From IMG/VR virus record IMGVR_UViG_3300042402_003952: a DNA stretch of 64,000 bases; one strand, given 5' to 3'. Made by a program: the position numbers and the translations under genes. The first letter of the stretch is position 1; each line of letters starts with the position of its first letter. The notes beneath the pieces were generated by a model. That model saw only the letters and a program-made list of their open reading frames with translations. It did not search any database and had not been told where the DNA came from. The DNA is from a virus (lineage: Duplodnaviria; Caudoviricetes). Below, in pieces: positions 28,164-55,828 of the stretch.

Positions 28164-31100
28164 ATGCCACAGCAAACTAACCTAAACGTATTTCCATATT
28201 TTGATGACTTTGATCGAGAAAATCAATACTATAGAGTTCTTTTTAAGCCAGGTTATCCAGTACAGGCTAGAGAACTAACAACATTACAATCAACTCTCCA
28301 AAGTCAAATAGAACAACTTGGAGATCACTTTTTTAAGGAAGGATCGGTTGTAATTCCTGGAAATATTAACTATGTTGATAATTATTATGCAGTAGAACTC
28401 CAAGAAAATTATCTTGGATCGGCAGTTTTAGATTATTTGCCATACTTGATTGGAGCAAGAATTAGAGGATCTAGTAGTGGTGTTAGAGCTCAGGTAGTTG
28501 GAATTTTAGATTTAACTAATTCGGAAAGAGGAAATAATACACTATATGTAAATTTTTTAGGATCAGATACTGCTACTAATAGTTTACAAGGTTTTGCTGC
28601 GGATGAAATTTTAATCGTAGAAGACGGAATATTTGAAACAAGTACCATAAATGAAGATAATTCAGTAATTATTCAACCCGGAGATGGATTTGCACTGACT
28701 ATAGGTGGAAATCCAAATTCAATTGCCTCTTCTGCTCACATATCTAATGGTGTTTATTATTTAAGAGGACATTTTGTAGATGTTGAAGAACAATCAATTC
28801 TTCTAGATCAATATGGAAATAAACCAAGTTATAAAGTTGGTTTAGAAGTTACAGAAACTATCGTAAATTCCGATTTTGATATTGATATTAATGACAATGC
28901 TCAGGGATTTTCAAATTATGCGGCACCAGGTGCTGACAGATTGCAGATTCAGGCAATACTTACAAAAATACCATTAGATAATACATCTTCAGAATTAACT
29001 TCTAATTTTGTACAACTTTTAGAAGTTAGAAATGGAATTTTACAACAACAGATTACCAATCCCGATTATAATATTTTTGAGAAGGAGCTAGCAAGAAGAA
29101 CATATGACGAATCTGGAAATTATTATGTAAAACCACCAACTCTTGTTGTTAATGAAACTCTAGATGATCTAAAAGGAAATAATGGTGTGTTTAGAGATGG
29201 ACAATTAACATACAATAATAATAAAGCATCTGATGAGTTAGGAACTTATGTTATATCTCCATTAAAGGCATTTGTAAGCGGATATGAAATAGATGTAGTA
29301 GGAACAACATATCTTGATTTTGAAAAACCAAGAACTACAAAATTACTAGAAGATCAAAGCGTAAATTATGTTACAGGACCAACTTATACTCTCAACAGAG
29401 TATATGGATCACCATCACTTGGAATTTCAACTTCATATGCATTAAGTTTAAGAGATCGTAGAGTAGGGTCAAACCAGACTAGTGCTGCAGGAAAAGAAAT
29501 AGGACTAGCAAGAGTATATGATTTTGCACTGGAGTCTGGATCTTATAACACTTCCACTCCAAATGCTAATGAGTGGGATATTGCTTTATATGATATTCAA
29601 ACTTATACTGAAATTTCTTTAAATGAACCAATCACACTTACTACACCAACTTATATTAAAGGAAAATCTAGTGGGGCAACTGGTTTCCTAAGATATAATG
29701 CTTCTAATTCAGGTATTATAACAGCATATAATACGAAAGGATCATTTTTAGTTGGTGAAAGATTTATATTTGATGGTATAGAAAATACAAGAGTTTCCAC
29801 TGCTCTCACTGCATATTCTACAAATGAAGTAAGATCTTTGTATGGAATAGTGGGAAGTGGATCAACATTTACTGCAGATATTAAGCAATCTGTACTAGCA
29901 AATGTTGGACAAGTAAAAATAACTGCTACTGGCGGTGGAATTAGCACTGTAACCTCCTCTGACTTTATCTTCACAGGAATTGCAACTGTTGGAGGAACTG
30001 TTGCATTTTCAAATCCAGGTCTATCGGTAAATACCTTTGCTAAAATAGAAACAGTTTCTCAGAGTTCTATTACAATTTCTGGTGTAACTACAGTTTCTGG
30101 TGTCTGTGATGGTGGACTACCTACATCTGACATTAACCCAAGTGATTTTAGAGTTTTATATTCTAATTTCCAGTCATCAATTGATAATACATTATATACA
30201 ACACTACCAAAGAGAAATATTGCTTCAGTGGACTTGACGGACTCATCATTAACCGTAAGAAATCAATATAATGTAACTATTACTACCAATTCTACGAATA
30301 CAGTTTCTGCAGAATCCACTGAAACTTTCTTACCATTTGATGAAGAAAGATATGTACTTATCACTAATTCTGGTGTTACTGAGAGTTTAAGTTCAGATAA
30401 ACTTGTATTTTCTAATGGCGGCAGAGAATTAACGATTAATGGATTACAAACTACTTCTGGAACAGGAAGATTAATTGCAACACTAAGAAAAACGAATATT
30501 AAGTCAAAAGTTAAGAATAAAAATAGAGTAAAGACAATTGTAGTTGATAAGTCTAAGTATGCTTATTCCGGTGTAGGTGCCACTACGAATAATGATGGAC
30601 TTACTTATGGAACTTATCCATATGGAACAAGAGTTCAGGACGAAGATATTTGTTTACTTGAACCAGATGTAACAATACTATATGGAATATATGAATCAAA
30701 TGATACATCTGAACCAGAACTTCCAAATCTAACACTTTCTTCAATTATCAGTCCAACAGGAAAAACTGATGATTTGTTAGTTGGCGAAGAATTTGTAGGA
30801 TCTACCAGTAGTGCAGTTGGTGTTTATGCAGAAAAACTAAATGCAACAAAAATATCATATGTGGTATTGAATTCTAATAGATTCCAAGTGGGTGAAATAA
30901 TTACATTTAAAGAATCAGGCATAACAGCTACTGTTACTGCGTTTGATGCTGGTGATAATAACATCACTGCAAATTATACTTTTGATAATGGTCAAAGAAA
31001 TACAATTTATGACTACTCTAGAATTACAAGAAAATCAAATTCAAAGGAACCAGTTAGAAAACTAAAGATTGCTTACGAATCTGCAAGTTTTTCAACTTCA

Positions 31101-33848
31101 GATACTGGAAATATTACCACTGCAGATTCATATAATCAATTTGATTATTGCGACATTCCAAGTGTAAATGGAATTAGAAACACAGATATTCTTGATATTA
31201 GACCAAGAGTTTCAAACTTTGCAGTAACTACATCGGCATTATCTCCATTTGAATTTAATGCTAGAAGTTTCACATCAAGTGGAAATTCTGCTTCTAATGT
31301 TTTAGCATCCGATGAATCTATACTGTTAAACTATTCTTATTACTTACCAAGAATTGATAAAATTTATTTAACAAAAGATGGCGTATTCCAACTAAACAAA
31401 GGAGAACCTGCAGATAATCCACAACCTCCAGTGGATATTGACGATGCATTAAATATTGCAACCATTACATTACCAGCATATCTCTGTAATGTTAATGATG
31501 CAAGTCTAAATCTTGCAGAACACAAGAGATATAGGATGAAGGATATTCATTCTCTTGAAAATAGAATCAAGAACTTAGAATATTATACTTCACTTTCTCT
31601 ATTAGAAACTGATACTTCAAATCTATTCATTAGAGATGTAAATGGTCTTAATAGATTTAAGTCAGGATTTTTTGTAGATGACTTCTCAACAACTTCTGCA
31701 CAGAAAAAAGTAACTATAGTAAAGAATAGTATTGATATTGAGAATTCTGAATTAAGACCTTCACATTATACCACAGAAGTTGACTTAATTATTGGATCCA
31801 ATTCATTAATCGGTTTAGGAGTTACTGCCAATCCACAAGCAGATCTTAGATACGTAACAGATCTTAATGGAACTAATATTGCAAAAAGCAAAGAGTTAGT
31901 AACTTTGAATTATGTTGAAGTTGAGGAAATAGTTCAACCATACGCAACTAGAATTGAAAGCGTATCTCCATTTAGAGTAGGATATTATGGAGGAACTATT
32001 AATCTTATTCCTTCATCAGATGTTTGGGTTGATACTGTAAGACTCCTAGCGAATACAACTGAAATATCAACAAACTATATTCAGTCCGAGTCTCAAATTA
32101 CTGCGGCAGAACTGGATAAACAATCTGGATTTGGTCCTGTAACCTGGGGATCTTGGGAGACTGTATGGACTGGATCCACAAAAGCAGTAGATACAAGAAC
32201 TGTTAATGTTGGATATTATATTATCAAAGAAGATCTTGAGACAACCACAAAAACAGGAACTAGTACCAGAACTGGCGTTAGAAAGATCACTAAAGACGAG
32301 TTTAAGAATGTTTCTCTCGGAGATACTGTTCTCAGCACAGAAATAAGTTCTTATATGAGATCCAGAAATATTGAATTTGTTGCTAAGAGACTAAAACCAA
32401 TTACTAGAGTTTATTCATTCTTTAATGGTGTTGATGTTAATAGGTATATTACTCCGAAATTACTAGAAATCAGTATGATTTCTGGAACATTCCAAGTAGG
32501 AGAAACAGTTGAAGGAACGATAGTATCATCTTCAACATCCGGACTAGGAGTAATTCAATCTGATCCAAAAATAACCTTTAGAGTTGCAACTGCTAATCAT
32601 AGATATGGTCCATATAATTTACCTACTGATATATCCAAAGCTAATCCATATAATGTAGCAGAAACACTACCTTCTGAGTATTCTTCTACTTCAACAGTAT
32701 TAAATATTGATACTTTTAGTCTTTCACAACAACCTCAAGGTGAATTTAGTGGATTTGTCCAATCTGGAATGAAATTAAGAGGTCAAACAAGTGGAGCAGA
32801 GGCAACAATAACTCAGGTCAGGCTAGTAACTGATCGCAATGGAGTCGTGATGGGATCGTTCTTTATTCCCAATCCAAATGTATTTGGTAATCCCACATTC
32901 CAAACAGGAACAAAACTGTTTAGAATGACTAGTAGTTCAACCAATTCGTTGATAGATTCAACTATCACTAGTGCTGAAGAAAAATTCTATTCGGAAGGAA
33001 AAATTAATAGAGTTCAAGAAAATATTCTTTCTGTGAGAACAGTAAGAACTGAAACTCAGACAGTAATTGAGAGTAAAGTAGAATCTTCAACTGGACCTAC
33101 TGCTGTTGTTGCTACAACTATTGTCGGAAATACATTACCACCTTATGTACCACCTGCACCTCCAGTTCTACCTACACCAAATGATGATGGAATTGTTCCA
33201 TTAGATGAGAGTCTTGGATCACAAGAACCTCAATCTACTTACCCAGAACCAGAACCACCGATTGATCCTCCTATAGAATCTGATCCTCCAGTCAATGATG
33301 TTCCACCACCACCATCTATACCAGAGGACGGCACACCAAAAGATCCTAAAAAGAATAAAAATGTTAGAACTTCTTATACTAATGTAGATGGAGTATCAAC
33401 TCCATTTACACAAGTAAAATATAAAGGTAAGTGGTACACTGGTCCAGAATTGATCAAGAAGATAGGTAAGAAAGCAGCTGCATCAGAGTTTAGAAAAAAT
33501 AATGTTAAACTAACTGAACTTGACAAAAATCCAATTTATGCAGCACTTTCTCTTAACAACAAAGAAACTAAAGTGTCTAAAGGTACTGTTTTTACACTAC
33601 AAAATACTTTACCAGGAACACCTGAACGAGCACAAGCAGAACTATTGAGAAAGAATAAACTAACAGGACAGCAAAAAATTAAACAAGGTTCTACTGGATT
33701 TAAAGCGACAGCTCTTGGTGTAGTTAAGGTTCCTGCTATTAAAAACAAGGGTAGTAATTCAACAAGAACAAATCCACCACCGGCACCGCCAACACAGCAA
33801 CAGCAACAGCAACAAAAACAACAACAAAATAAGAACAAAAGAAGATGA
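28164..33848 (+). CDS. VrlC-like / DUF4815-type virion structural protein (1894 aa)
   Basis: NLNVFPYFDDF...YYRVLFKPGYPVQARELTTLQS, NYAAPGADRL, RFKSGFFVDDF. Confidence 0.85.
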   Translation: MPQQTNLNVFPYFDDFDRENQYYRVLFKPGYPVQARELTTLQSTLQSQIEQLGDHFFKEGSVVIPGNINYVDNYYAVELQENYLGSAVLDYLPYLIGARIRGSSSGVRAQVVGILDLTNSERGNNTLYVNFLGSDTATNSLQGFAADEILIVEDGIFETSTINEDNSVIIQPGDGFALTIGGNPNSIASSAHISNGVYYLRGHFVDVEEQSILLDQYGNKPSYKVGLEVTETIVNSDFDIDINDNAQGFSNYAAPGADRLQIQAILTKIPLDNTSSELTSNFVQLLEVRNGILQQQITNPDYNIFEKELARRTYDESGNYYVKPPTLVVNETLDDLKGNNGVFRDGQLTYNNNKASDELGTYVISPLKAFVSGYEIDVVGTTYLDFEKPRTTKLLEDQSVNYVTGPTYTLNRVYGSPSLGISTSYALSLRDRRVGSNQTSAAGKEIGLARVYDFALESGSYNTSTPNANEWDIALYDIQTYTEISLNEPITLTTPTYIKGKSSGATGFLRYNASNSGIITAYNTKGSFLVGERFIFDGIENTRVSTALTAYSTNEVRSLYGIVGSGSTFTADIKQSVLANVGQVKITATGGGISTVTSSDFIFTGIATVGGTVAFSNPGLSVNTFAKIETVSQSSITISGVTTVSGVCDGGLPTSDINPSDFRVLYSNFQSSIDNTLYTTLPKRNIASVDLTDSSLTVRNQYNVTITTNSTNTVSAESTETFLPFDEERYVLITNSGVTESLSSDKLVFSNGGRELTINGLQTTSGTGRLIATLRKTNIKSKVKNKNRVKTIVVDKSKYAYSGVGATTNNDGLTYGTYPYGTRVQDEDICLLEPDVTILYGIYESNDTSEPELPNLTLSSIISPTGKTDDLLVGEEFVGSTSSAVGVYAEKLNATKISYVVLNSNRFQVGEIITFKESGITATVTAFDAGDNNITANYTFDNGQRNTIYDYSRITRKSNSKEPVRKLKIAYESASFSTSDTGNITTADSYNQFDYCDIPSVNGIRNTDILDIRPRVSNFAVTTSALSPFEFNARSFTSSGNSASNVLASDESILLNYSYYLPRIDKIYLTKDGVFQLNKGEPADNPQPPVDIDDALNIATITLPAYLCNVNDASLNLAEHKRYRMKDIHSLENRIKNLEYYTSLSLLETDTSNLFIRDVNGLNRFKSGFFVDDFSTTSAQKKVTIVKNSIDIENSELRPSHYTTEVDLIIGSNSLIGLGVTANPQADLRYVTDLNGTNIAKSKELVTLNYVEVEEIVQPYATRIESVSPFRVGYYGGTINLIPSSDVWVDTVRLLANTTEISTNYIQSESQITAAELDKQSGFGPVTWGSWETVWTGSTKAVDTRTVNVGYYIIKEDLETTTKTGTSTRTGVRKITKDEFKNVSLGDTVLSTEISSYMRSRNIEFVAKRLKPITRVYSFFNGVDVNRYITPKLLEISMISGTFQVGETVEGTIVSSSTSGLGVIQSDPKITFRVATANHRYGPYNLPTDISKANPYNVAETLPSEYSSTSTVLNIDTFSLSQQPQGEFSGFVQSGMKLRGQTSGAEATITQVRLVTDRNGVVMGSFFIPNPNVFGNPTFQTGTKLFRMTSSSTNSLIDSTITSAEEKFYSEGKINRVQENILSVRTVRTETQTVIESKVESSTGPTAVVATTIVGNTLPPYVPPAPPVLPTPNDDGIVPLDESLGSQEPQSTYPEPEPPIDPPIESDPPVNDVPPPPSIPEDGTPKDPKKNKNVRTSYTNVDGVSTPFTQVKYKGKWYTGPELIKKIGKKAAASEFRKNNVKLTELDKNPIYAALSLNNKETKVSKGTVFTLQNTLPGTPERAQAELLRKNKLTGQQKIKQGSTGFKATALGVVKVPAIKNKGSNSTRTNPPPAPPTQQQQQQQKQQQNKNKRR

Positions 33849-39443: not shown

Positions 39444-40445
39444 ATGTTTGAGTATTTTTATCACGAGATATTAAGAAGAACAGTAATTTCTTTTGGTTCT
39501 TTATTCAATAATATCTCAATTAAACATACAGACAACAGTGGAAATGTTGTTAGTGTTATAAAAGTACCTTTTGCATACGGTCCTACTCAAAAATTCTTGG
39601 CCAGACTAGAACAGTCTCCAAATTTAAATAAACCAGTTCAGATGACTTTGCCTAGAATGTCATTTGAACTGGTTGGTTTATCATATGATCCTACCAGAAA
39701 AGCCACTACAACTCAATCATTCCTAACTACATCTTCAACAAACAAAACTCAAGAAAAAAAGGCATATTTGCCTGTTCCATATAACCTTGATTTTGAGTTG
39801 AGTATAATGACAAAATTGAATGATGATATGCTCCAAATTATAGAGCAAATTATACCATATTTCCAACCAGCATATACAATCAGTATTGATTTAGTAAAAG
39901 AGATTGGAGAGAAGAGAGATATACCTGTTATTCTAAACAGCATTTCAATGTCTGATGATTATGAAGGTGATTTTTCAACTAGGAGAGCACTAATTTATAC
40001 ATTGAGATTTACTGCAAAAACTTATCTGTTTGGACCTATTTCTACTGCTTCTTCAGATGTTATCAAAAAAGTTTCTATTGGTCTTGTTGCAGGAGATTCA
40101 ACCAAAACACCAACGAGAGAGGTTGTGTATACAGTAGAACCAAGAGCAACAAAGAATTATACTGGAACTATCACTACAACTCTTTCAAAAGATATATCTT
40201 TATCTGATACTCTAGTAGAAGTTGTAGATGCATCCAATATTCCAGAAAATACATACATATATGTTGATGAAGAAGAAATGTATGTTGATTCTAAAGCAGG
40301 AAATCTTCTTACTGTTAAAAGAGGATCAGATGAAACAATTGCAGCACCTCATGTTTTAGGATCATCTGTTAAGAAAATTACAACCGAAGATAATGATCTC
40401 ATAGAAGTTGGCGATGATTTTGGATTTAGTGGTACATTATCATGA
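39444..40445 (+). CDS. gp15: tail sheath stabiliser/terminator gp15
   Basis: YFYHEILRRTVISFGSLFN, VPFAYGP.QKFL, LPRMSFE, EQIIPYFQP. Confidence 0.95.
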   Translation: MFEYFYHEILRRTVISFGSLFNNISIKHTDNSGNVVSVIKVPFAYGPTQKFLARLEQSPNLNKPVQMTLPRMSFELVGLSYDPTRKATTTQSFLTTSSTNKTQEKKAYLPVPYNLDFELSIMTKLNDDMLQIIEQIIPYFQPAYTISIDLVKEIGEKRDIPVILNSISMSDDYEGDFSTRRALIYTLRFTAKTYLFGPISTASSDVIKKVSIGLVAGDSTKTPTREVVYTVEPRATKNYTGTITTTLSKDISLSDTLVEVVDASNIPENTYIYVDEEEMYVDSKAGNLLTVKRGSDETIAAPHVLGSSVKKITTEDNDLIEVGDDFGFSGTLS

Positions 40446-40879
40446 AAATGACAAAGAAATTTAAAGACCTAAACGATACCTTCAATGTTTCCGACGAAAA
40501 TGTTGAAATTATATCTAGTCCCGAAATTATTGAGGAAAAAATTCAAAAAGCAGATACTATTGGCAATGAAATAAAAAAAGATTATGAATATACTAGAGGA
40601 AATTTATACTCTTTAATTGAAAAGGGTCAAGAGGCAATTAATGGAATATTGGAACTGGCTCAAGAAAGTGAGATGCCTAGAGCATATGAAGTAGCTGGTC
40701 AATTAATTAAAAATGTTGCTGACGCAACAGATAAACTAATGGATCTTCAAAAGAAGTTAAAAGATATTGAAGAGGATAGGTCATCAAAATCTCCAACAAA
40801 TGTAACAAATGCATTGTTTGTTGGATCGACATCCGAACTTGCAAAATTATTAAAAAATCAAGATCTAAAAAATCAGTGA
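40442..40879 (+). CDS. gp16: terminase small subunit gp16
   Basis: DYEYTRGNLY, ESEMPRAYEVAGQLIK, NALFVGSTSEL. Confidence 0.92.
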   Translation: MKMTKKFKDLNDTFNVSDENVEIISSPEIIEEKIQKADTIGNEIKKDYEYTRGNLYSLIEKGQEAINGILELAQESEMPRAYEVAGQLIKNVADATDKLMDLQKKLKDIEEDRSSKSPTNVTNALFVGSTSELAKLLKNQDLKNQ

Positions 40880-40923: not shown

Positions 40924-42954
40924 TTGAGAGAAATATCACTTTTAAATATGGGAAAAAAAGTACTATCTCCATCAGAATTAATAGAACTTCGTGCTCGGCA
41001 AAAAGAAGAGGAAGAAATTTTTGCGGCAAAATTAAAAGAAGAAAATAAATTACAAGAAAAACTTAAAAGAATTTTATCTCCCAGCGATCTTCTAGATCCA
41101 AAACAAGAGTCTGAACCAGTAATAGAAGAAGTAATAGAGTTCATAGAAAAAATAAAAGATCCAATTGAGGTTCTTCATGAAAGAATTGAAGAGGTTTCTT
41201 CGACCATTAAAGAACCAAAGTACTATGATAAAGAAATCTCTCAAGTAAATACAGTAATTGAAGAGATTAAAAAAAGTATTCCAAAGGTCCCAGAAGTAAA
41301 ATATTACGACAGAGAGATTCAATCGATTATTGAAAAATTAGATTCTCTTGATATTCGTTATTACGAATCTGATATACAATTTATTAATGATAGATTAAAC
41401 AAACTTCGTGATTTTGATGTTAGAAACAATAAAGAGATAAGACTTGCTATTAGTAGAATAGTAGAGGATGTTGAAAAGTTTTATGAGTTGGAGATACTTG
41501 ATCCAAAAGAAACTCACAAGTATATTGATCTAATAAAAGAATCTTTTTATAAAAAAGTAGAAGATTTAAAATTACAACTTTCTGAAATTCCAGAAGTTAA
41601 GTATTATGATGATGAATTATTAGAACTCAAAGAAAAGATTGAATCCGTCAGAGTTTCTATTCCAAAAATTCCAGAAATTCCAGAAGTTAAGTATTATGAT
41701 GATGAATTATTAGAACTCAAAGAAAAGATTGAATCCGTCAGAGTTTCTATTCCAAAAATTCCAGAAATTCCAGAAGTTAAGTATTATGATGATGAATTAT
41801 TAGAACTCAAAGAAAAGATTGAATCCGTCAGAGTTTCTATTCCAAAAATTCCAGAAATTCCAGAAGTTAAGTATTATGATGATGAACTAAAGTGTATTAT
41901 TAACACTATTGAAGAAGTTCGTTCTAGTATTCCAGAACTTCCTGAAGTTCGTTATTATGAGAATGAAATTTTTAAATTAGAAGAATCTATTAAAGATGTT
42001 GAGACAAGACTTTCGAAGATTCACTATTATGATGAACAAATTAATGAGTTAAATGAGTCTATAAAAAATGTAGAGAATAAGATTCCGATAGTTCCTAAAT
42101 TTCCAAAAGTTAAGTACTACGATAATGAGATTTCTGAACTTAATAACATTCTTGAGAAAATTAAAAAAGACATTTATCAACTTCAAAAATCTGTTGATAA
42201 TATTGAGATTCCGGAACAAATAGATTGGTCTATTGAAATTGAAAATATTTATGAACAAATAGAAAAACTTAAAGAAGTTCCAGTTATTACAGAAAGCACC
42301 GATCCTCTTATTCCATTAGATCAAAATTTTGTAACTCTTGATGATCTTCAAAGTCACTATAAACTTTTTATCAATCGCATCCAACAACAACTTTCTACTT
42401 TAGGTGGTGGTGGAGAAACGCGATTAGAATTTCTTGATGATATTGATAGAAATACAGCCAAAACAAATAACTATTATCTAAAATATGATGCATCTTTAGA
42501 TAAATGGGTTGGTGACGCTGGAAGTGGAGGTGGTGGAGGAGGTTCTCAGACTTTAGATCAAACACTATTACTTGGCAACACATCATCTCTAGGAATGAAT
42601 GTTGGAATAGTTACTGCAACTTCTTTTGTTTTGAATGGCGGAACTATATCCTCAGGAGTTGTTACAACCACTTCAATATCAGAAACTACAATAGTATCTT
42701 TGAACTCTTCAATTTACAGATCTGCCACATATCAAATACAAATCACTGACGGAACTAATTATAATATGACATCAATCAATGTAATTCATGATGGAACTAC
42801 AACTTATATGACAGAATATGGAACCATCAACCAACCGATTGGAATTGCTACATTCTCAACTGATATTAATTCTGGATCACTAAGACTTCTTGCATATCCT
42901 AGTTCTACTAATAATACAACTTTTAAAGTTATTTTGACCTCAATATCCATATGA
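40924..42954 (+). CDS. repeat-containing coiled-coil protein (PEVKYYD repeats) with C-terminal beta domain
   Basis: 676-aa ORF (TTG start; ATG at 40948 possible); multiple PEVKYYDxE heptad units; QQQLSTLGGGGE..LEFLDD motif. Confidence 0.8.
   Translation: MREISLLNMGKKVLSPSELIELRARQKEEEEIFAAKLKEENKLQEKLKRILSPSDLLDPKQESEPVIEEVIEFIEKIKDPIEVLHERIEEVSSTIKEPKYYDKEISQVNTVIEEIKKSIPKVPEVKYYDREIQSIIEKLDSLDIRYYESDIQFINDRLNKLRDFDVRNNKEIRLAISRIVEDVEKFYELEILDPKETHKYIDLIKESFYKKVEDLKLQLSEIPEVKYYDDELLELKEKIESVRVSIPKIPEIPEVKYYDDELLELKEKIESVRVSIPKIPEIPEVKYYDDELLELKEKIESVRVSIPKIPEIPEVKYYDDELKCIINTIEEVRSSIPELPEVRYYENEIFKLEESIKDVETRLSKIHYYDEQINELNESIKNVENKIPIVPKFPKVKYYDNEISELNNILEKIKKDIYQLQKSVDNIEIPEQIDWSIEIENIYEQIEKLKEVPVITESTDPLIPLDQNFVTLDDLQSHYKLFINRIQQQLSTLGGGGETRLEFLDDIDRNTAKTNNYYLKYDASLDKWVGDAGSGGGGGGSQTLDQTLLLGNTSSLGMNVGIVTATSFVLNGGTISSGVVTTTSISETTIVSLNSSIYRSATYQIQITDGTNYNMTSINVIHDGTTTYMTEYGTINQPIGIATFSTDINSGSLRLLAYPSSTNNTTFKVILTSISI
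41584..41886 (+). repeat. perfect 90-bp tandem repeat (~3.4 copies) within CDS
   Basis: GAAATTCCAGAAGTTAAGTATTATGATGATGAA recurs at 41584, 41674, 41764, 41854. Confidence 0.95.
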
Positions 42955-43106
42955 AAACTTTCAAACAGTTTCAAGAAGAGTGGAGTAATAAATATAAAAA
43001 GAGTATTGACTGCTCAAATCCAAAAGGATTTTCTCAACGTGCTCACTGTGCAGCGAGAAGGAAAAGAGCGAAAGGTGAAGAGACTAAATCAAACCCAGTT
43101 GAGTAA
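42951..43106 (+). CDS. putative internal head protein (51 aa, MKTFKQFQEEWSNKYKKSIDCSNPKGFSQRAHC...), not in ORF track
   Basis: Hand-translated; N-terminus resembles the T4 capsid-targeting sequence; overlaps both neighbours. Confidence 0.75.
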   Translation: MKTFKQFQEEWSNKYKKSIDCSNPKGFSQRAHCAARRKRAKGEETKSNPVE

Positions 43107-44947
43107 TGCCCAAGATCAAACCACACAAAACAGTTGAGCAAATTGCAAAAAAGCATCGTCTTGATGTTTCTTTCATACAAAAGCAGCTTGATATGGGGGA
43201 ACCTATTGAACATGAGCACACTCAAGATCATGAACTTGCAATGTATATTGCTCTCCAGCATCTTGATGAAATTCCAGATTATTACACTCGTTTGAAAAAA
43301 ATGGAAGCAGATGCTAAAAAGCACCATAAAAAATTTAAGGATGTAAATGTAAACGAAGAAGGTCTTCGTGATTGGTTTGGCAAATCAAAATCAAAAGATA
43401 AAAAACCGGGTTGGGTTGATGTTGTAGATGGTGATGCTTGTGCCAGAGAAGAAGGGGAAACTGCTACTCCAAAATGCGTTTCATCCGAAAAACGTGCTTC
43501 AATGAGTAAAGCAGAAAGACTTGCCGCACAAGCAGCAAAAAGAAGAGAAGATCCAAATCAACCGCAAAAATCTAGCGCCGCTAAACCAACTATGGTAAGA
43601 ACAGATAGAAAAACAAGGAAAGAGGAAATGGATTTGCAAGAAGTCAAAGACAAACCAGGTAAAGGTAGTGGTAAAAAAGATGTTTGTTATCACAAAGTAA
43701 AGTCAAGGTATAGCGTTTGGCCAAGTGCATATGCGTCGGGAGCATTGGTCAAGTGCCGTAAAGTTGGTGCAGATAACTGGGGAATTAAATCAGAAGCAAC
43801 TGAAGAGCAAAGATATTGTCCATTATGCGACAAAAGAGAAACTAGATCTGAATGTTCTTATGGTGGAAAAGCATGGGATAAAGTTTCCATCAAAGATCAT
43901 GAATATTCAATGGCAAGATCTGAACTAAAAACTATTGCCGATGCCGTAAAGAGACTTCAGATGAAGGTAGGAAAGGGTGAAGGAGATCTTGAAGCATGGG
44001 TTCAATCAAAAATTACCAAAGCTGCAGACTATATTGATACTGCAGCAGACTATGTTGCGAGTGGAGAAATGGACGAAAGTGTTTCTAAAGAACCAAAATT
44101 AAAACCAAAATCTGGACTTGGTGGAGGAAATCCAACATATCCGCCAGGAAAAGATCCAAAACCGACAGGTGCAAAACTTCCAAAAATAAGAGAAGAAAAA
44201 TTAGTAGATAAAATTACTAAAGAAATTCTTGATGAAAAATGTTGGACTGGATATAAAAGAAAAAAAGGAACTACTAAATTTGAAAAGGGTTCTTGCGTAA
44301 AATCAGAAAATGTTACTATTGAAGATGCAAATGGAAATGCATTTGCAGAAGTTGTTGATATTATTAAACCCGAACCAATTAAAGGATTTAAATCTCAAGT
44401 AGATGAGGCGACAAGACTTCAGGCACAAACTGGAAACGTAATTGCAGTTACTTTAAATTGGAGAGGAAAATATTATTCACTTAGAATGTTTTTTCCTCAA
44501 GTAAAACTTCCAACTCGTAAAGAAATTAATGCCGAACTTCAAAAAGTTTATCCCGGATCAATAGTTGTTTATCATTCAGTTTCTGAAATTCAACCAGGAC
44601 AACCATTGATTCAAACATTTGGTCCTCAAGGTGGAAGTTCTGCTAAACTAGGTTCAAATAAAAATTATGTAAAACCTATGGGAATGATGGGTGAAGAAGT
44701 TGAGGTTGATGAAGATTGGCAGAAAGTCAATCGTCAAGATAGAACTGATGGTTTGAGTTCTGCTGCAGTTAAAGCATATCGTCGTGAAAATCCAGGTTCA
44801 AAACTCAAAACTGCCGTTACCACACCTCCTTCAGAATTAAAACCAGGTTCGGCAGACTGGAAAAGGAGAAGAGATTTCTGTAATCGTTCTAGAAGTTGGA
44901 CTGGAGAAAGAGGTAAGGCAGCACGTAAACGTTGGAATTGTAACTAA
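43106..44947 (+). CDS. modular protein (613 aa): DUF5661-like N-terminus, several small modules, DUF6321-like C-terminus
   Basis: IEHEHT...IALQHLDEIPDYYTRL; WPSAYASGALVKCRK; GLSSAAVKAYRRENPGSKLK...RRRDFC...RKRWNC. Confidence 0.75.
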   Translation: MPKIKPHKTVEQIAKKHRLDVSFIQKQLDMGEPIEHEHTQDHELAMYIALQHLDEIPDYYTRLKKMEADAKKHHKKFKDVNVNEEGLRDWFGKSKSKDKKPGWVDVVDGDACAREEGETATPKCVSSEKRASMSKAERLAAQAAKRREDPNQPQKSSAAKPTMVRTDRKTRKEEMDLQEVKDKPGKGSGKKDVCYHKVKSRYSVWPSAYASGALVKCRKVGADNWGIKSEATEEQRYCPLCDKRETRSECSYGGKAWDKVSIKDHEYSMARSELKTIADAVKRLQMKVGKGEGDLEAWVQSKITKAADYIDTAADYVASGEMDESVSKEPKLKPKSGLGGGNPTYPPGKDPKPTGAKLPKIREEKLVDKITKEILDEKCWTGYKRKKGTTKFEKGSCVKSENVTIEDANGNAFAEVVDIIKPEPIKGFKSQVDEATRLQAQTGNVIAVTLNWRGKYYSLRMFFPQVKLPTRKEINAELQKVYPGSIVVYHSVSEIQPGQPLIQTFGPQGGSSAKLGSNKNYVKPMGMMGEEVEVDEDWQKVNRQDRTDGLSSAAVKAYRRENPGSKLKTAVTTPPSELKPGSADWKRRRDFCNRSRSWTGERGKAARKRWNCN

Positions 44948-44963
44948 TCAATAGGTCTTTATT

Positions 44964-46613
44964 ATGCCAAATAATGATGTATATCTTGGTAATCCTTTAT
45001 TAAAAAAGGCAAACACTACTCACGAATTTACAGAAGAACAGGTTCTTGAGATTGTCAAGTGCATGAATGACCCTGTTTATTTTGCCAATAATTATGTAAA
45101 AATTGTTACTCTAGATCATGGTTTACAGACATTCAAACCATATGATTTCCAAGAGAAGTTAATTAATAACTTCCATAAGCATAGATTTAATATCTGCAAG
45201 ATGCCACGGCAGACTGGAAAATCAACCACTGTTGTATCTTTCCTGCTCCATTATGCAGTCTTTAATGACAATGTTAATATAGGTATCCTAGCAAACAAAG
45301 CAGCAACAGCCAGGGAGCTCCTGGATAGGTTACAGACTGCTTATGAGAATCTACCGAAGTGGATGCAGCAAGGTATTATCTCCTGGAATAAAGGATCGCT
45401 TGAACTTGAGAATGGTTCTAAGATTTTAGCAGCATCAACATCTGCATCTGCTGTCCGAGGAATGTCATTCAACATTCTATTCTTGGACGAATTTGCGTTC
45501 GTTCCAAATCATATTGCAGACTCTTTCTTTGCATCTGTTTATCCTACTATTACATCAGGTAAACAAACAAAAGTTATTATAGTCTCTACTCCACACGGTA
45601 TGAATCATTTCTACCGAATGTGGCATGATGCTGAGAAAGGAAAAAATGAATATGTTTTTACCGATGTTCATTGGAGTGAAGTTCCTGGTCGTGACGAAGA
45701 GTGGAAAAAGCAAACGATTGCGAATACGTCAGATCAACAATTTAAGGTTGAGTTTGAATGCGAATTCTTAGGTTCTGTTGATACACTCATTGCACCATCT
45801 AAACTCAGAACACTCGTGTATGACCATCCCAAGACACGTAGCGCAGGTTTAGATGTCTATGAGGATCCAATTGAGAATCACGACTATTTAATCACTGTAG
45901 ACGTTGCTAGAGGCGTTGGAAACGACTACTCAGCATTTACTGTTGTGGACATAACGCAGTTTCCACATAAAGTCGTTGCAAAATATAGAAACAACGAAAT
46001 CAAACCAATGCTTTTTCCAAGCATTATTCATGAGGTTGCAAAAAGTTATAATGATTCTTATGTTTTATGTGAGGTAAACGACGTGGGTGATCAAGTAGCA
46101 TCCATTCTTCAATATGATTTGGAATATAATAATTTACTCATGTGTTCTATGAGAGGTAGAGCAGGTCAAATTGTGGGTCAAGGATTTTCTGGAAAGAAAA
46201 CTCAACTTGGTGTAAAGATGTCTAAAACTGTTAAAAAGGTTGGATGTCTAAACTTAAAAACAATGATTGAAGAGAACAAGTTGTTTTTAAATGACTATGA
46301 AATCATTGCAGAACTTACAACATTCATCCAGAAACACAATTCATTTGAAGCTGAAGAAGGATGCAATGATGACTTGGCAATGTGCTTGGTGATCTATGCA
46401 TGGTTAGTTGCACAAGACTATTTTAAAGAACTTACAGATCAGGATGTTAGAAAAAGATTATATGAGGAACAAAAAAATCAAATAGAACAAGATATGGCAC
46501 CATTTGGTTTTGTTTCTGATGGATTAAATGAAGGTAGTTTTATTGATGCTGATGGTGACAGGTGGTTTGTAGATGAATATGGCGATAGATCTTACATGTG
46601 GGAATATATGTGA
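44964..46613 (+). CDS. gp17: terminase large subunit gp17
   Basis: PRQTGKST (Walker A), FLDEFAF (Walker B), STPHG, DVARG, DDLAM. Confidence 0.97.
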   Translation: MPNNDVYLGNPLLKKANTTHEFTEEQVLEIVKCMNDPVYFANNYVKIVTLDHGLQTFKPYDFQEKLINNFHKHRFNICKMPRQTGKSTTVVSFLLHYAVFNDNVNIGILANKAATARELLDRLQTAYENLPKWMQQGIISWNKGSLELENGSKILAASTSASAVRGMSFNILFLDEFAFVPNHIADSFFASVYPTITSGKQTKVIIVSTPHGMNHFYRMWHDAEKGKNEYVFTDVHWSEVPGRDEEWKKQTIANTSDQQFKVEFECEFLGSVDTLIAPSKLRTLVYDHPKTRSAGLDVYEDPIENHDYLITVDVARGVGNDYSAFTVVDITQFPHKVVAKYRNNEIKPMLFPSIIHEVAKSYNDSYVLCEVNDVGDQVASILQYDLEYNNLLMCSMRGRAGQIVGQGFSGKKTQLGVKMSKTVKKVGCLNLKTMIEENKLFLNDYEIIAELTTFIQKHNSFEAEEGCNDDLAMCLVIYAWLVAQDYFKELTDQDVRKRLYEEQKNQIEQDMAPFGFVSDGLNEGSFIDADGDRWFVDEYGDRSYMWEYM

Positions 46614-51689: not shown

Positions 51690-52010
51690 ATGAAATCTTT
51701 CAAGCAATTTATCTCAGAATCAGTTAATATTGCTGGCGATTTCACAGGAAATCTTTATATTGGTGCTCAACCAGAACAACCACAACAAGTCGGCGAAGGA
51801 TATGTTGCTGATGTTATGTGGCAAGGAAGTCTATATCGTTTAGAGTTAGTCACTAAAACTGGAGTTCCTTCTCCAAGAGAACTAGGTGAGCAACTGCAAT
51901 CTGATTATCCAGGAGCAGTTGTTCATCAAATTTATCCAGTGATGGAAAAAAACTTTAACATTAAAAACGTACAAAGATACCACCCATCAAAGTTAGAATG
52001 GATTGATTGA
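51690..52010 (+). CDS. putative internal head protein (106 aa, MKSFKQFISE...)
   Basis: In-frame ATG at 51690; CTS-like N-terminus; domain paralogous to a module of 43106-44947. Confidence 0.75.
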   Translation: MKSFKQFISESVNIAGDFTGNLYIGAQPEQPQQVGEGYVADVMWQGSLYRLELVTKTGVPSPRELGEQLQSDYPGAVVHQIYPVMEKNFNIKNVQRYHPSKLEWID

Positions 52011-53421: not shown

Positions 53422-53973
53422 ATGGCTCATAGACCAGTTGGAGCTGGAGCATCGTTTGCATTTACTGCAGGAGCTGCATCCACATCATCCACATTTTCAG
53501 TTCAATCAAGTGTTTTGAGAGTTGTCGCTGTTACTGCAGGTGCTCATATTGCAGTAGGATCAACTCCTTCTGCAACTAATGCTGATTATTATGTTCCTGC
53601 AGGTGGAACAGCAACTCTTGCTCTGACTAAAGCATCTAATCGTGTAGTTGGTGTAACAACAGGAACTACTACAATCGTAACTGTTCCAGAAGGAACACAA
53701 GTTCCATTTGGTGTTGGTGATTATGTCAGCTTAAGTGCAACAGGTCAATCATATTATGATTTCACTCATAAAGAAGTTTTGTCAGTGAATACTACGCAAG
53801 GAGTGAATGGATATTATCATACAAGAATGACGGTTGCACATAATTCAAGTGGTATTTCAACTGCATTTGGACCATCAGATGCATCAGTAACAGCATCAAA
53901 TAAAGTTTCTGCCTATGGTGCTGGCGCAGGAACTCTCTATTACCAACAAGTACAAATCACGGGAGACGCCTGA
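53422..53973 (+). CDS. conserved hypothetical virion protein (183 aa) upstream of gp21
   Basis: ORF track; late promoter; overlaps the gp21 start. Confidence 0.8.
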   Translation: MAHRPVGAGASFAFTAGAASTSSTFSVQSSVLRVVAVTAGAHIAVGSTPSATNADYYVPAGGTATLALTKASNRVVGVTTGTTTIVTVPEGTQVPFGVGDYVSLSATGQSYYDFTHKEVLSVNTTQGVNGYYHTRMTVAHNSSGISTAFGPSDASVTASNKVSAYGAGAGTLYYQQVQITGDA

Positions 53974-54620
53974 TGAAACTCATTACGGAAGAAATCGAAA
54001 AGGTAGAAGTTCTTAAAGAAGGAACTGGAAAAAATCAAAAACTTTATATTAAAGGTCCATTCCTACAAGCAGAATGCGTAAATCGCAATGGACGTATGTA
54101 TCCCATGTCCATTATGGAAAGAGAAGTGCAGCGTTATACCGAACAGTACGTTCAAAAAGGACGTGCTTTAGGTGAACTTGGACACCCAGATGGTCCAACC
54201 GTAAACCTTGATAGAGTTTCTCACAAGATTGTTGAACTATGTCGTGAAGGTAACAATTTCATCGGCAAAGCACAAATTCTTTCAACTCCTATGGGTAAGA
54301 TTGCAGAATCTCTACTCAAAGATGGAGTATGTCTTGGCGTTTCTTCTCGTGGTATTGGATCACTAAGAGAAAACAGCAAAGGATACAAAGAAGTCGGCGA
54401 AGATTTTATGCTCGCAACTGCTGCTGATATTGTAGCAGATCCTTCTGCACCTGATGCTTTTGTTCAGGGAATCATGGAAGGTGTTGAATGGATATGGAAT
54501 AATGGAGTTCTAGAGCAAAAAGTTGCTAACTTTGAGAAAAAAATCAATATATATGTAGACAAAGGTATTCTAGAACAATATAAACTGAGTCTATTCAATG
54601 AGTTTTTAAACTCATTGTAA
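53973..54620 (+). CDS. gp21: prohead protease gp21
   Basis: NRNGRMYP, ALGELGHPDGP, LGVSSRGIGS, DIVADPSAPDAFV. Confidence 0.97.
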   Translation: MKLITEEIEKVEVLKEGTGKNQKLYIKGPFLQAECVNRNGRMYPMSIMEREVQRYTEQYVQKGRALGELGHPDGPTVNLDRVSHKIVELCREGNNFIGKAQILSTPMGKIAESLLKDGVCLGVSSRGIGSLRENSKGYKEVGEDFMLATAADIVADPSAPDAFVQGIMEGVEWIWNNGVLEQKVANFEKKINIYVDKGILEQYKLSLFNEFLNSL

Positions 54621-54676: not shown

Positions 54677-55828
54677 ATGTCTCGTGGAGATTTACAAGAA
54701 ATGGAAGTAGGCACAAAGCAATCCAGAACCGCTGTTAATGCTAATGCAAAAGCAGCGGATGCAATGCCACATCTTTCTGGCGCAACGCCAGGACAAACTG
54801 GAGGATGGGAAGATCTTGGAGGACCAGATCCTTCCAATTATCGTCCAGATGATGATTCGGCAAGGCTGAAAACCCCAGGCGCAACTCTTAAGCAAGTTAA
54901 GGATGTTGTGAATAAGAGTGCTAAGCCAGCTGAAGCAATGAAAGGTGTAAAAGAAGAAGAAGAACTCGAAGATGAAGACCTCATCGAGGAAGAGAATGAA
55001 GAATATGATGAAGAAGAGATTGTAGAAGCAAAGCACAAAAATGATGATGAAGAAGATGATGAAGATGATGAAGAAGATGAAGATGAAGAAGAAGTAGAGG
55101 AAGAGTTTGACATCGATGAAGATGTAAATGCTCTTCTTGAAGGCGAAAATCTTTCCGAAGAGTTTCAAGATAAGGCACGTACCATCTTCGAAGCTGCTCT
55201 TCGCTCTAAAGTTTTTCAGATTCAAGAAAAAATTGAAGAGCAGTATGCAGTTGCTCTCGCAGAGGAAGTTGAAGAAATTAAGACTGAACTTGCAGAGCGC
55301 GTAGACTCTTATTTAGAGTATGTTGCTGATGAGTGGTTTAATGAAAACTCACTCGTAATCGAAAATGGTCTTAAGACCGAGATGACCGAATCATTCCTCC
55401 AAGGAATGAAGGGTCTTTTTGAAGAACATTATGTAACAATCCCTGAAGATAAATATGATGTGCTTGAGAGCATGGTAGAAAAACTTGATGATATGGAGAC
55501 AAAACTCAACGAGCAAATTGAGAAAAACGTTTTCCTAAACAAGCGTCTCGCAGAGTCGGTTGCTGATGGAATCTTTGAACAGGTCGCTGATGGTCTTGCA
55601 GACACTCAGAAAGACAAGCTCGCTTCACTTGCCGAAAGTGTTGAGTTTGAAAGTGAAATAGAATATCGTGAAAAACTGGAGACATTGAAGGAATCATATT
55701 TTCCTTCAAGAGTAGTTTCTCCATTGGCTAAAACTGAAACTCTATCGGAAAGCACCGAAATGACACCAGAACATGTTTCTGATTCAATGGCTGCTTATCT
55801 GAAGACTCTTTCAGCATTCAGCAAATAA
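54677..55828 (+). CDS. gp22: prohead core scaffold protein gp22
   Basis: Between gp21 and gp23; acidic; LSEEFQDKARTIFEAA, YLEYVADEW, KLETLKESYF. Confidence 0.93.
   Translation: MSRGDLQEMEVGTKQSRTAVNANAKAADAMPHLSGATPGQTGGWEDLGGPDPSNYRPDDDSARLKTPGATLKQVKDVVNKSAKPAEAMKGVKEEEELEDEDLIEEENEEYDEEEIVEAKHKNDDEEDDEDDEEDEDEEEVEEEFDIDEDVNALLEGENLSEEFQDKARTIFEAALRSKVFQIQEKIEEQYAVALAEEVEEIKTELAERVDSYLEYVADEWFNENSLVIENGLKTEMTESFLQGMKGLFEEHYVTIPEDKYDVLESMVEKLDDMETKLNEQIEKNVFLNKRLAESVADGIFEQVADGLADTQKDKLASLAESVEFESEIEYREKLETLKESYFPSRVVSPLAKTETLSESTEMTPEHVSDSMAAYLKTLSAFSK

Follow-up and report, generated by a model that had tools for sequence, protein, structure and literature searches.

A leaderless chain of exchangeable mini-modules between the terminase genes of a T4-like cyanomyovirus, and its possible role as internal head cargo

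We analyzed a 64,000-nucleotide stretch of viral DNA (Duplodnaviria; Caudoviricetes; IMG/VR record IMGVR_UViG_3300042402_003952), referred to below as the window, and in particular one open reading frame (ORF) at positions 43106-44947, the target. PHROG and Pfam scans place the window in the late structural region of a T4-like cyanomyovirus, where the target lies between the small (gp16) and large (gp17) terminase genes, as it does in S-SM2, S-SRM01 and ACG-2014f. The fibre-like ORF upstream and a 51-amino-acid (aa) ORF share ATGA, the 51-aa ORF and the target share TAATG, and gp17 follows after a gap of 16 bases; because of these overlapping start and stop codons and the closeness of gp17, we assign the target to the structural operon. 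Its product is Lys-rich (13.4% K), with a mass of 69 kDa and an isoelectric point (pI) of 9.4. The evidence supports a chain of about nine autonomous mini-modules, as judged from the sequences of the target and its relatives, and we tentatively propose that this chain is concatenated cargo of the type of the T4 internal head proteins. The features that bear most directly on this proposal are the following.

42951-43106 (+): 51-aa ORF; leader MKTFKQFQEE, resembling the T4 capsid-targeting sequence (CTS), then two-Cys module X1, WSNKYKKSIDCSNPKGFSQRAHC
43106-44947 (+): target ORF, 613 aa; member of T4-GC119 / phrog_727
44964-46613: gp17
51690-52010 (+): stand-alone paralog of target module M7b, 106 aa; leader MKSFKQFISE; phrog_1742; between the portal and protease genes
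53973-54620 (+): gp21-type prohead protease (phrog_207, E 4.5e-79), the proposed processing enzyme
54677-55828 (+): gp22 scaffold (phrog_237), presumed docking partner of the leaders

A preliminary description made from the letters of this DNA had presented the target as a modular 613-aa protein, and it proves to be as described, with all of the listed motifs present. Hidden Markov models (HMMs) were built for nine target modules (M1-M8, M7 being divided into M7a and M7b) and also for the neighbouring modules X1 and X2. Residue numbers are given with the window coordinates.

43127-43339 (+), residues 8-78: M1, DUF5661 module (Pfam) with an EHEHT motif
43361-43603 (+), residues 86-166: M2, GLRDWF...C...C module, phrog_3477/12753
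43667-43792 (+), residues 188-229: M3, WPSAYAS two-Cys module with invariant columns
43808-43891 (+), residues 235-262: M4, CPLC...C mini-module
43895-44068 (+), residues 264-321: M5, helical module, EYSMARSEL...WVQSKITKAADYID
44069-44194 (+), residues 322-363: hypervariable Pro/Lys-rich spacer, between the MDE and IRE sites
44195-44305 (+), residues 364-400: M6, short helix and CWxGY...C module
44309-44401 (+), residues 402-432: M7a, IEDANG...KGFKSQ module, in 63 of 150 relatives
44411-44620 (+), residues 436-505: M7b, WRGKYYSL...YPG beta-beta-alpha-beta module, paralog of the 106-aa ORF
44711-44944 (+), residues 536-613: M8, DUF6321-like C-terminal module, ending in RKRWNCN

The Pfam match to DUF5661 covers residues 11-67 at 49.2 bits (cut-off 27). 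DUF6321 scores 26.8 bits over residues 545-601, slightly below its cut-off of 28.5, and the precomputed family list of a 99%-identical relative (P0001) includes PF19846 (DUF6321). The modules span 30-80 aa, are mostly basic, and are joined by variable acidic or Pro-rich spacers. Invariant Cys pairs are C112/C124, C194/C217, C379/C397 and C592/C612, and M4 has three Cys. Each of the Cys-bearing mini-modules M2, M3, M6, M8 and that of the 51-aa ORF holds exactly one conserved pair; one disulfide bond or half a metal site in each module would suit small proteins whose stability has to last in particles exposed to open water.

In an alignment of 120 close relatives (59-99% identity), conserved blocks alternate with spacers that are hypervariable and rich in gaps, at about residues 80-86, 167-187, 322-363 and 525-535. 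The spacer at 322-363 is full of gaps, scores 0-4 for identity (scale 0-9), and has a predicted local distance difference test score (pLDDT) below 50. AlphaFold2, run with a 40-sequence alignment, gave a mean pLDDT of 46 and a predicted template-modelling score (pTM) of 0.21, with pLDDT above about 55 only at residues 91-150, 380-400, 442-495 and 540-613; an Atlas model of the chain has a pTM of 0.18. A search of the ESM Atlas with residues 84-232 returned only viral hypothetical clusters with DUF5872, DUF6321, DUF5661 or DUF192. Nothing in these models suggests one obligate fold, a poor model being weak evidence in itself, and the free permutation of modules described next likewise agrees with the earlier picture of separable parts.

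Module order was surveyed in the 150 best representatives of the family (P0124-P0273), some of which are possibly fragments. They display 123 distinct architectures, and 76 are non-colinear with the target; fragments would inflate the number of architectures, not of permutations. The chains hold 2-9 modules each (median 5); M2 is present in 109 of 150 and is followed by M3 in 85. All other modules change places freely, but DUF6321 (M8), present in 105 chains, comes last in all 105 and may serve to anchor the chain to something. Rearrangement is also visible in individual proteins: the GLxDWF module is tandemly duplicated in P0006, an additional CxxC (M4-type) module follows DUF5661 in P0011, P0013, P0014 and P0051, an additional helical (M5) module stands N-terminally in P0059, and a WSDKYKKSIDC...GFSQRAHC module is inserted in P0098. 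Every module family is also found as a separate gene, and order is freely permuted.

Against PHROGs, the target matches phrog_727 (E 1.8e-71) and phrog_3477 (E 3.2e-46), and the syntenic gene of S-SM2 is annotated ‘T4-LIKE GC: 119’. By tblastn, relatives occur in 387 phage records, nearly all of them Synechococcus or Prochlorococcus myoviruses. Just one of these records reaches at least 80% query coverage, and the top isolate match, S-SRM01, has 66.9% identity over 65% of the query. A word-indexed search, with the best 8000 candidates scored, yielded at least 7956 proteins at E ≤ 0.001; an exhaustive search of 50%-identity representatives yielded 8588 clusters at E ≤ 0.001, of which 3596 reach ≤ 1e-10 and 477 reach ≤ 1e-30. 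T4-GC119 has been listed in 15 of 16 cyanophages, S-PM2 being without it, with a very variable length (276-2985 nt) and the name ‘Structural protein’, and Table S8 of the same study records it in S-SM1 virions with 13 peptide counts (Sullivan 2010, PMC3037559). The homolog in S-SCSM1, a phage for which mass spectrometry found 45 virion proteins (PMC9602691), is annotated ‘virion protein’, and several other isolates label theirs ‘structural protein’. Virion association, as first proposed for the target itself, is thus on record for its homologs, and together with kinship to leader-tagged cargo it makes loading into the head plausible.

That kinship is seen in M7b. Residues 441-487 align with the protein of ORF 51690-52010 at 30% identity over 47 aa (BLASTP, E 2e-5), and hhalign of the two module alignments gives a probability of 94.7% (E 5.9e-8), as against 0.5% for two unrelated module pairs; the paralogy noted in the preliminary description is real by both measures. 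AlphaFold2 models the 106-aa paralog as a beta-beta-alpha-beta unit (pLDDT 72), for which the best Foldseek match in the PDB has E 0.77 and the best match of a wide VIA-align search has Z 4.5, in the noise range.

The same protein had been classed as a CTS protein, and its start resembles those of the T4 internal proteins. MKSFKQFISE (51690) and MKTFKQFQEE (42951) are the only two leader starts in all six frames of the window; in T4, as read from NC_000866, ipII and ipIII begin with MKTYQEFIAEA and ipI with MKTFKEFTST. For IPIII, the N-terminal 10 residues are enough for loading into the T4 head; CTS residues 4 and 7 serve targeting and residues 8 and 10 processing, and the protease gp21 cleaves after L/I-X-E (PMC9026906). 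The cyanophage leader retains aromatic residues at 4 and 7 and Glu at 9 or 10, as in the T4 rules. A frameshift that would fuse the 51-aa leader ORF to the target was rejected: a TGA at 43100-43102 lies in the target frame two codons before its ATG. Reading the sequence revealed no slippery run at the overlap of the two ORFs.

The leader also stands on a protein known from particles. The S-SCSM1 NMN (nicotinamide mononucleotide) adenylyltransferase (record W01, 88819-90048, locus L139/L147), a virion protein by mass spectrometry, starts MKSFLQFLKE, exactly at a match to the leader pattern. Its S-SM2 homolog (130761, locus L137) starts MKSFFQFLSE, and among the listed IMG/VR leader ORFs at least five encode HxGH nucleotidyltransferases (L014, L018, L040, L046, L087). 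A ‘citidylyltransferase’ (T4-GC190) has been reported in S-SM1 virions (Sullivan 2010, PMC3037559). With a looser leader pattern, seven of eight records gave 1-8 matches per genome, all on the forward strand, and the reversed pattern, as a control, gave no match in those eight records.

G001 (36-kb fragment): 0 matches
G015: 1 match
G006: 3 matches
G017: 2 matches
G008: 2 matches
S-SCSM1: 2 matches
S-SM2: 1 match
S-SRM01: 8 matches

The leader starts of the freshwater phage S-SRM01 (W03) are at 47292, 81722, 82315, 83142, 126582, 138614, 157606 and 176324, with three in tandem at 81.7-83.2 kb that carry Arg/Ala-rich cargo. G006 (168.5 kb, terminal repeats) has three leader ORFs in 2.2 kb (125783-128700; L130, L134, L135), two of which share HxHLPAYTSTS; by likeness alone, this recalls the STS motifs of ADP-ribosyltransferases and the packaged Alt of T4. 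On an 84-kb IMG/VR contig (L006; CheckV 12% complete, an estimate that implies a very large genome), an MKTFKQF start belongs to an ankyrin-repeat protein, either by chance or through wider use of the tag. A gp21 homolog is present in 8 of the 20 leader-bearing viral records of at least 31 kb, most of the others being fragments 12-44% complete; one 93%-complete, 53-kb leader record is without gp21, and the leader match there is probably due to chance.

A scan of IMG/VR with the back-translated leader found at least 123 stretches with at least 126 ORF starts, 122 of them unique. HMMs derived from the chains match 24 of the 126 listed leader ORFs.

M7b: 15 of 126
M6: 4 of 126 (L027, L042, L110, L122)
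M8 / DUF6321: 3 of 126 (L038, L064, L097)
M2: 1 of 126 (L025)
M1 / DUF5661: 1 of 126 (L080)

Further listed leader ORFs match X1 (16) or X2 only (11), by HMMs built from these very ORFs, and 75 carry other cargo. X1 also lies within or at the start of 21 of the 150 chains. A leader-X1 ORF adjoins the chain gene in the window, Bellamy, S-SM2, G008 and G017, and in S-SRM01 X1 is fused on as the first chain module, without a leader (MGWSEKYKK...). Two-module leader proteins (L055; S-SM2 L002, 5276-5704), in which X1 is preceded by the Met-less remnant RKNFRQFRE/SWTNKYKK (here and below, a slash within a motif marks the joint), look intermediate between tagged single genes and long chains. Single modules are not invariably tagged, as is shown by the separate M2 ORF of ACG-2014f, which starts MGNLHKWF. 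Exchange of modules between polyprotein and stand-alone genes had been suggested for the target, and with leader-tagged forms of DUF5661, CWxGY, DUF6321, WSNKYKK and WRGKYY/phrog_1742 in hand, comparison of these sequences lends good support to the view that modules swap between chains and stand-alone genes, some of the latter behind a T4-type leader.

The joints between modules are the second line of evidence. The preliminary description likened Glu-rich linkers of the target (VNEE 82-85, LQE 177-179, MDES 322-325, IREE 361-364, LDEK 375-378, VDEA 432-435 and VDED 534-537, all present) to gp21 sites. A signal is seen in the placement of the sites and in their enrichment across the family; it does not extend to their number in the target, which is at chance, and the enrichment statistic is also raised in a fibre protein, as set out below. 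The seven sites are as follows.

43349-43357 (+), residues 82-84: VNE, directly before M2; hydrophobic-x-E in 120/120 close relatives (VTEE, VKEE, IKEE, LKEE)
43634-43642 (+), residues 177-179: LQE, nine residues before M3; in 120/120; source of the -9 family peak
44069-44077 (+), residues 322-324: MDE, directly after M5; in 116/120
44186-44194 (+), residues 361-363: IRE, end of the spacer; in 99/120
44228-44236 (+), residues 375-377: LDE, directly before KCW of M6; in 120/120; register as FTE/ACW in L042
44399-44407 (+), residues 432-434: VDE/A, directly before M7b; in 120/120, as VEEA, VDEA, VSEA, VNEA or IEEA
44705-44713 (+), residues 534-536: VDE, directly before M8; in 118/120

Between 99 and 120 of the 120 close relatives keep each of the seven, with changes at P3 and P2, and across clusters less than 50% identical the P1 Glu and a hydrophobic P3 persist while P2 varies. 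Of the 12 target sites, eight coincide with a module border or shortly precede one (82, 177, 322, 361, 375, 432, 528, 534) and four are inside modules; no hydrophobic-x-E lies between M3 and M4 (ATEEQ/RYC) or between M4 and M5 in the target. If all seven sites were used, the predicted pieces would be 10.1, 10.6, 16.1, 4.1, 1.7, 6.4, 11.3 and 8.9 kDa, with a pI of 8.6-10.9 except for the first and the 14-residue piece.

Across the 150 representatives, 510 unique linkers contain 840 hydrophobic-x-E sites, compared to 536 ± 20 expected, the observed number being reached in 0 of 1000 shuffles, whereas 812 module segments are depleted (387 vs. 483 expected). At least one site is found in 83% of linkers (56% expected). 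In linker sites, P1' is enriched in A (2.1x), D, E, G and S, and the preferred P3 residues are M, I, V, F and L. Observed/expected ratios for the tested motif and six others are given for all linkers and for linkers of up to 40 aa.

Hydrophobic-x-E (tested motif): all linkers 1.57; linkers ≤40 aa 1.93
E-x-hydrophobic: all linkers 1.41; linkers ≤40 aa 1.61
Hydrophobic-x-x-E: all linkers 1.20; linkers ≤40 aa 1.29
Hydrophobic-x-Q: all linkers 1.07; linkers ≤40 aa 0.94
Hydrophobic-x-K: all linkers 1.01; linkers ≤40 aa 0.62
Hydrophobic-x-D: all linkers 0.97; linkers ≤40 aa 0.63
Hydrophobic-E: all linkers 0.93; linkers ≤40 aa 0.84

Counted from module starts, the site Glu shows maxima at -2, -1 and 0 (72, 87 and 69 of 581 junctions), with a further peak at -9 from the M3 pattern LQE-VKDKPGKG. 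Sites in 114 long linkers are concentrated at the ends, with 4.9 and 4.5 per 100 residues in the first and last 14 positions, compared to 1.8 in the middle. Registers agree between chains and leader proteins. Each of the 8 internal X1 copies has its Glu at -2, the border reading (hydrophobic or x)-x-E-[GED]/WS, and leader forms, with F-x-E-[ESD]/WS, share this register; the M6 border is ILDE/KCW in the target and FTE/ACW behind a leader; and the M8 border is VDE/DWQ in the target, with whole leader-like remnants in relatives (KSFAKFMAE/ASAAWQ or RTFLQFMDE/AAAAWQ). Strict leader-like remnants occur inside 9 of 150 chains (0.6 expected), while a loose internal-leader pattern (F..hydrophobic..E) has no clear enrichment (z 1.7-2.2). 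Split and fused forms break at a site: the window has ...PVE, a stop and MPKIKPHKTVEQ, and S-SRM01 has ...KLKE/QFKPFKTVEE. In the window's own gp23, a site is predicted at about residue 59 (NLME/S), aligned by eye to LTE65/A66 of T4 gp23. By the same statistic, the window's gp22, as a positive control, has a ratio of 1.65 (z 3.6), and gp21 has 1.75 (z 2.6).

The other genes of the region are listed here for reference.

37189: gp13
38042: gp14
39444: gp15
40442-40879: gp16 (small terminase)
40924-42954 (+): tail-fibre-like protein, 676 aa
46598-46843 (+): endonuclease-VII-like zinc-ribbon ORF, 81 aa, phrog_4723; between gp17 and gp18, overlapping the gp17 end
46929: gp18
49151: gp19
49828: gp20
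51521 and 51690: two small ORFs
52014: virion protein, 455 aa
53422: DUF7243 protein
55885: gp23

The 676-aa fibre-like ORF is the target's upstream neighbour within the gp16-gp17 variable region, and the coiled-coil-like N-terminal half of its product contains about four near-identical tandem repeats (IPEVKYYDDELLELKEKIESVRVSIPK). The endonuclease-VII-like gene is present at the same gp17-gp18 place in S-SM2 and S-SCSM1. Two giant ORFs also lie in the window: 14081-26575 (+), 4164 aa, phrog_2885, a baseplate wedge subunit / virion structural protein, and 28164-33848 (+), 1894 aa, phrog_358, to which that phrog assigns no function.

Three known systems offer comparisons. The internal proteins (IPs) of T-even phages are a diverse, defence-related set with only the CTS in common (PMC3012670). 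Similarly, the window's two small leader ORFs have starts that resemble MKTFKEF (IPI) and MKTYQEFIAE (IPII/III), and a constant tag is combined with diverse cargo in small, mostly basic proteins. Unlike single T4 IPs, the target is leaderless and joins about nine cargo modules, none of them similar in sequence to a T4 IP. Since it is without an N-terminal leader, it falls outside the T4 IP class by that class's defining feature, and we regard it as a putative variant on the IP theme, with cargo-type modules in one leaderless chain that has protease-type joints. The T4 core proteins gp22, gp67, gp68 and Alt, with several gp21 cuts each, are comparable in other respects: the target likewise is without an MKTY-type leader (T4 gp67 and gp68 do not begin with one either), has several L/I-X-E-like sites, and is encoded in the head-gene neighbourhood, where the window's gp22 has the same site enrichment. 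However, most fragments of the T4 core proteins are discarded after gp21 cleavage, making room for DNA (T4 review), whereas the target's inter-site segments are conserved, independently occurring modules and for that reason look like products, not waste. A 55-aa ORF after gp20 was considered as a gp67 homolog and rejected, as BLASTP gave no alignment to T4 gp67. The inner-body and ejection proteins of phiKZ and SPN3US are also internal to the head and are cut after Glu at short motifs, some of them multiply, by a gp21-like protease (review); unlike the target, they are separate genes with propeptides, another motif and another phage lineage, with no chains of shuffled mini-modules.

Because the same module families are also separate small genes, many of them, in T4-like cyanophages, tagged with the leader (MK[ST]F.[QE]F..E), the chain is best read as concatenated IP-type cargo. 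The full reading is that the target is a T4-GC119 virion protein that is loaded into the head, cut by gp21, and delivered in pieces that enter the host with the DNA, and we put its chances somewhat short of even. The chain would be made late, alongside the structural genes, and would be built into the prohead core; gp21 would cut it after the conserved hydrophobic-x-Glu at module borders, and the released pieces would stay with the DNA and follow it into the cell. Guesses at how a leaderless chain might enter the prohead are the C-terminal DUF6321, an internal KKFKDV.EE element, or co-assembly with the product of the coupled leader-X1 ORF. Cleavage and injection of the chain are what we infer from sequence and from the analogy to T4. 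A bolder and more doubtful extension is that of a combinatorial ‘poly-cargo’ precursor, from which the head protease would free six or more mini-effectors in the capsid for injection along with the DNA; a fast-evolving arsenal, for example against host defences, might then be maintained through recombination at the joints and traffic with leader genes in thousands of phage lineages from oceans and lakes.

Several observations weigh against this reading of the chain as cut head cargo. The low-confidence AlphaFold2 model is no proof of module independence. The target starts with MPKIKPHKTVEQ (MPKIKPHK) and has no leader; 146 of the 150 relatives are likewise leaderless, only four chains being leader-initiated; 13 of 150 start with M[SG]WS, which is X1 minus its leader. 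Leaderless single modules exist at the same locus (the M2 ORF of ACG-2014f) and in small phages of other types (a 93-aa DUF6321 gene in pelagiphage HTVC024P and a 56-aa M3-type gene, WPSAYGS, in Roseobacter phage CRP-902). In the target alone, the sites are at chance, with 4 [LI]xE vs. 4.2 expected, 11 [LIVM]xE vs. 8.6 ± 2.6, and 12 [LIVMF]xE vs. 9.6 (z 0.9). P3 in the family is often V, M or F, whereas the T4 motif has L or I. The z-scores are inflated because the shuffle test ignores relatedness and related sequences are not independent. The raised E-x-hydrophobic ratio (1.41) means that enrichment is not specific to the tested motif, and the coiled-coil fibre-like neighbour, no known substrate, reaches a ratio of 1.78 (z 5.1); because that protein scores equally high, enrichment by itself is no proof of protease sites. 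A Syn9 homolog is annotated yet undetected in virions in the tables of Sullivan 2010 (PMC3037559), and the S-SCSM2R homolog carries no virion note. Our literature search found no published measurement of cleavage, head location or ejection for any family member, and no gel or peptide-level results on processing.

The most serious alternative, which we nevertheless consider rather unlikely, is that the chain stays intact in the virion (head, neck or surface) as a flexible multi-domain protein, for example a Lys-rich DNA-binding or DNA-condensing protein or an adaptor, the borders being domain caps, spacers or fusion relics. The virion detections fit this, coming without size information (Table S8 holds counts only), and most chains are leaderless. 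T4 internal proteins contact DNA via lysines (PMC3012670), and the target's Lys content would suit such a role; a DUF6321 that is invariably last is what one would expect of a fixed anchor on one working molecule. The site statistic of the coiled-coil protein and the raised E-x-hydrophobic ratio point the same way. However, relics should decay, yet the P1 Glu and hydrophobic P3 persist below 50% identity. Asp does not substitute for Glu (ratios 0.63-0.97), and in T4 Asp at the cut position blocks processing (review). Sites are depleted inside modules, and the ORF boundaries of split forms coincide with sites. Free permutation in half of the representatives surveyed (76 of 150) is hard to square with spatially cooperating parts.

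It is quite improbable, in our estimate, that the target is no true virion component at all, but a late intracellular protein or host-takeover module chain that contaminates or sticks to particles, with kinship reflecting a shared pool of small domains. The homologous single modules of pelagiphage and roseophage are ordinary small genes in non-structural regions, which speaks for this explanation, as do the Syn9 homolog that went undetected in particles and the GC119 copies noted in a mobile cassette alongside zwf, gnd, petE and PTOX (Sullivan 2010, PMC3037559). Against it stand the overlapping codons that tie the gene into the gp13-gp20 structural operon, its conserved gp16-gp17 synteny, the peptides from S-SM1 particles, and the ‘virion protein’ and ‘structural protein’ labels of S-SCSM1 and other isolates. 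Least credible is cleavage by something other than gp21 or outside the prohead, with self-processing or host proteases freeing the modules as soluble factors in the cell: speaking for it are, in general, the conserved border sites, whose sole tie to gp21 is likeness to the T4 motif, but Pfam and PHROGs find no protease-like module in the chain, the motif fits both the T4 L/I-X-E rule and the predicted gp23 site of this phage, and the register is the same behind a T4-type leader.

The GC119 family and the T4 scheme of IPs, CTS and gp21 were known before. Within the text and tables of its description, the family is named only hypothetical or structural, with modularity, leaders and protease sites unmentioned (PMC3037559), and we found no paper on such a module chain or on the cyanophage leader in the literature searched, subscription journals not being covered. 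Among the viruses of oceans and lakes, T4-like cyanophages belong to the most abundant, and over 8,500 clusters (50% identity) fall in this gene family alone. Even an uncut chain remains a striking example of domains being shuffled within a virion protein. If the chain is cut head cargo, the T4 system of capsid targeting and proteolysis would extend from single proteins to a polyprotein format, DUF5661, DUF6321 and DUF5872-like domains would gain a class of function, and a large set of proteins would come into view that may act in the first seconds of Synechococcus and Prochlorococcus infection.

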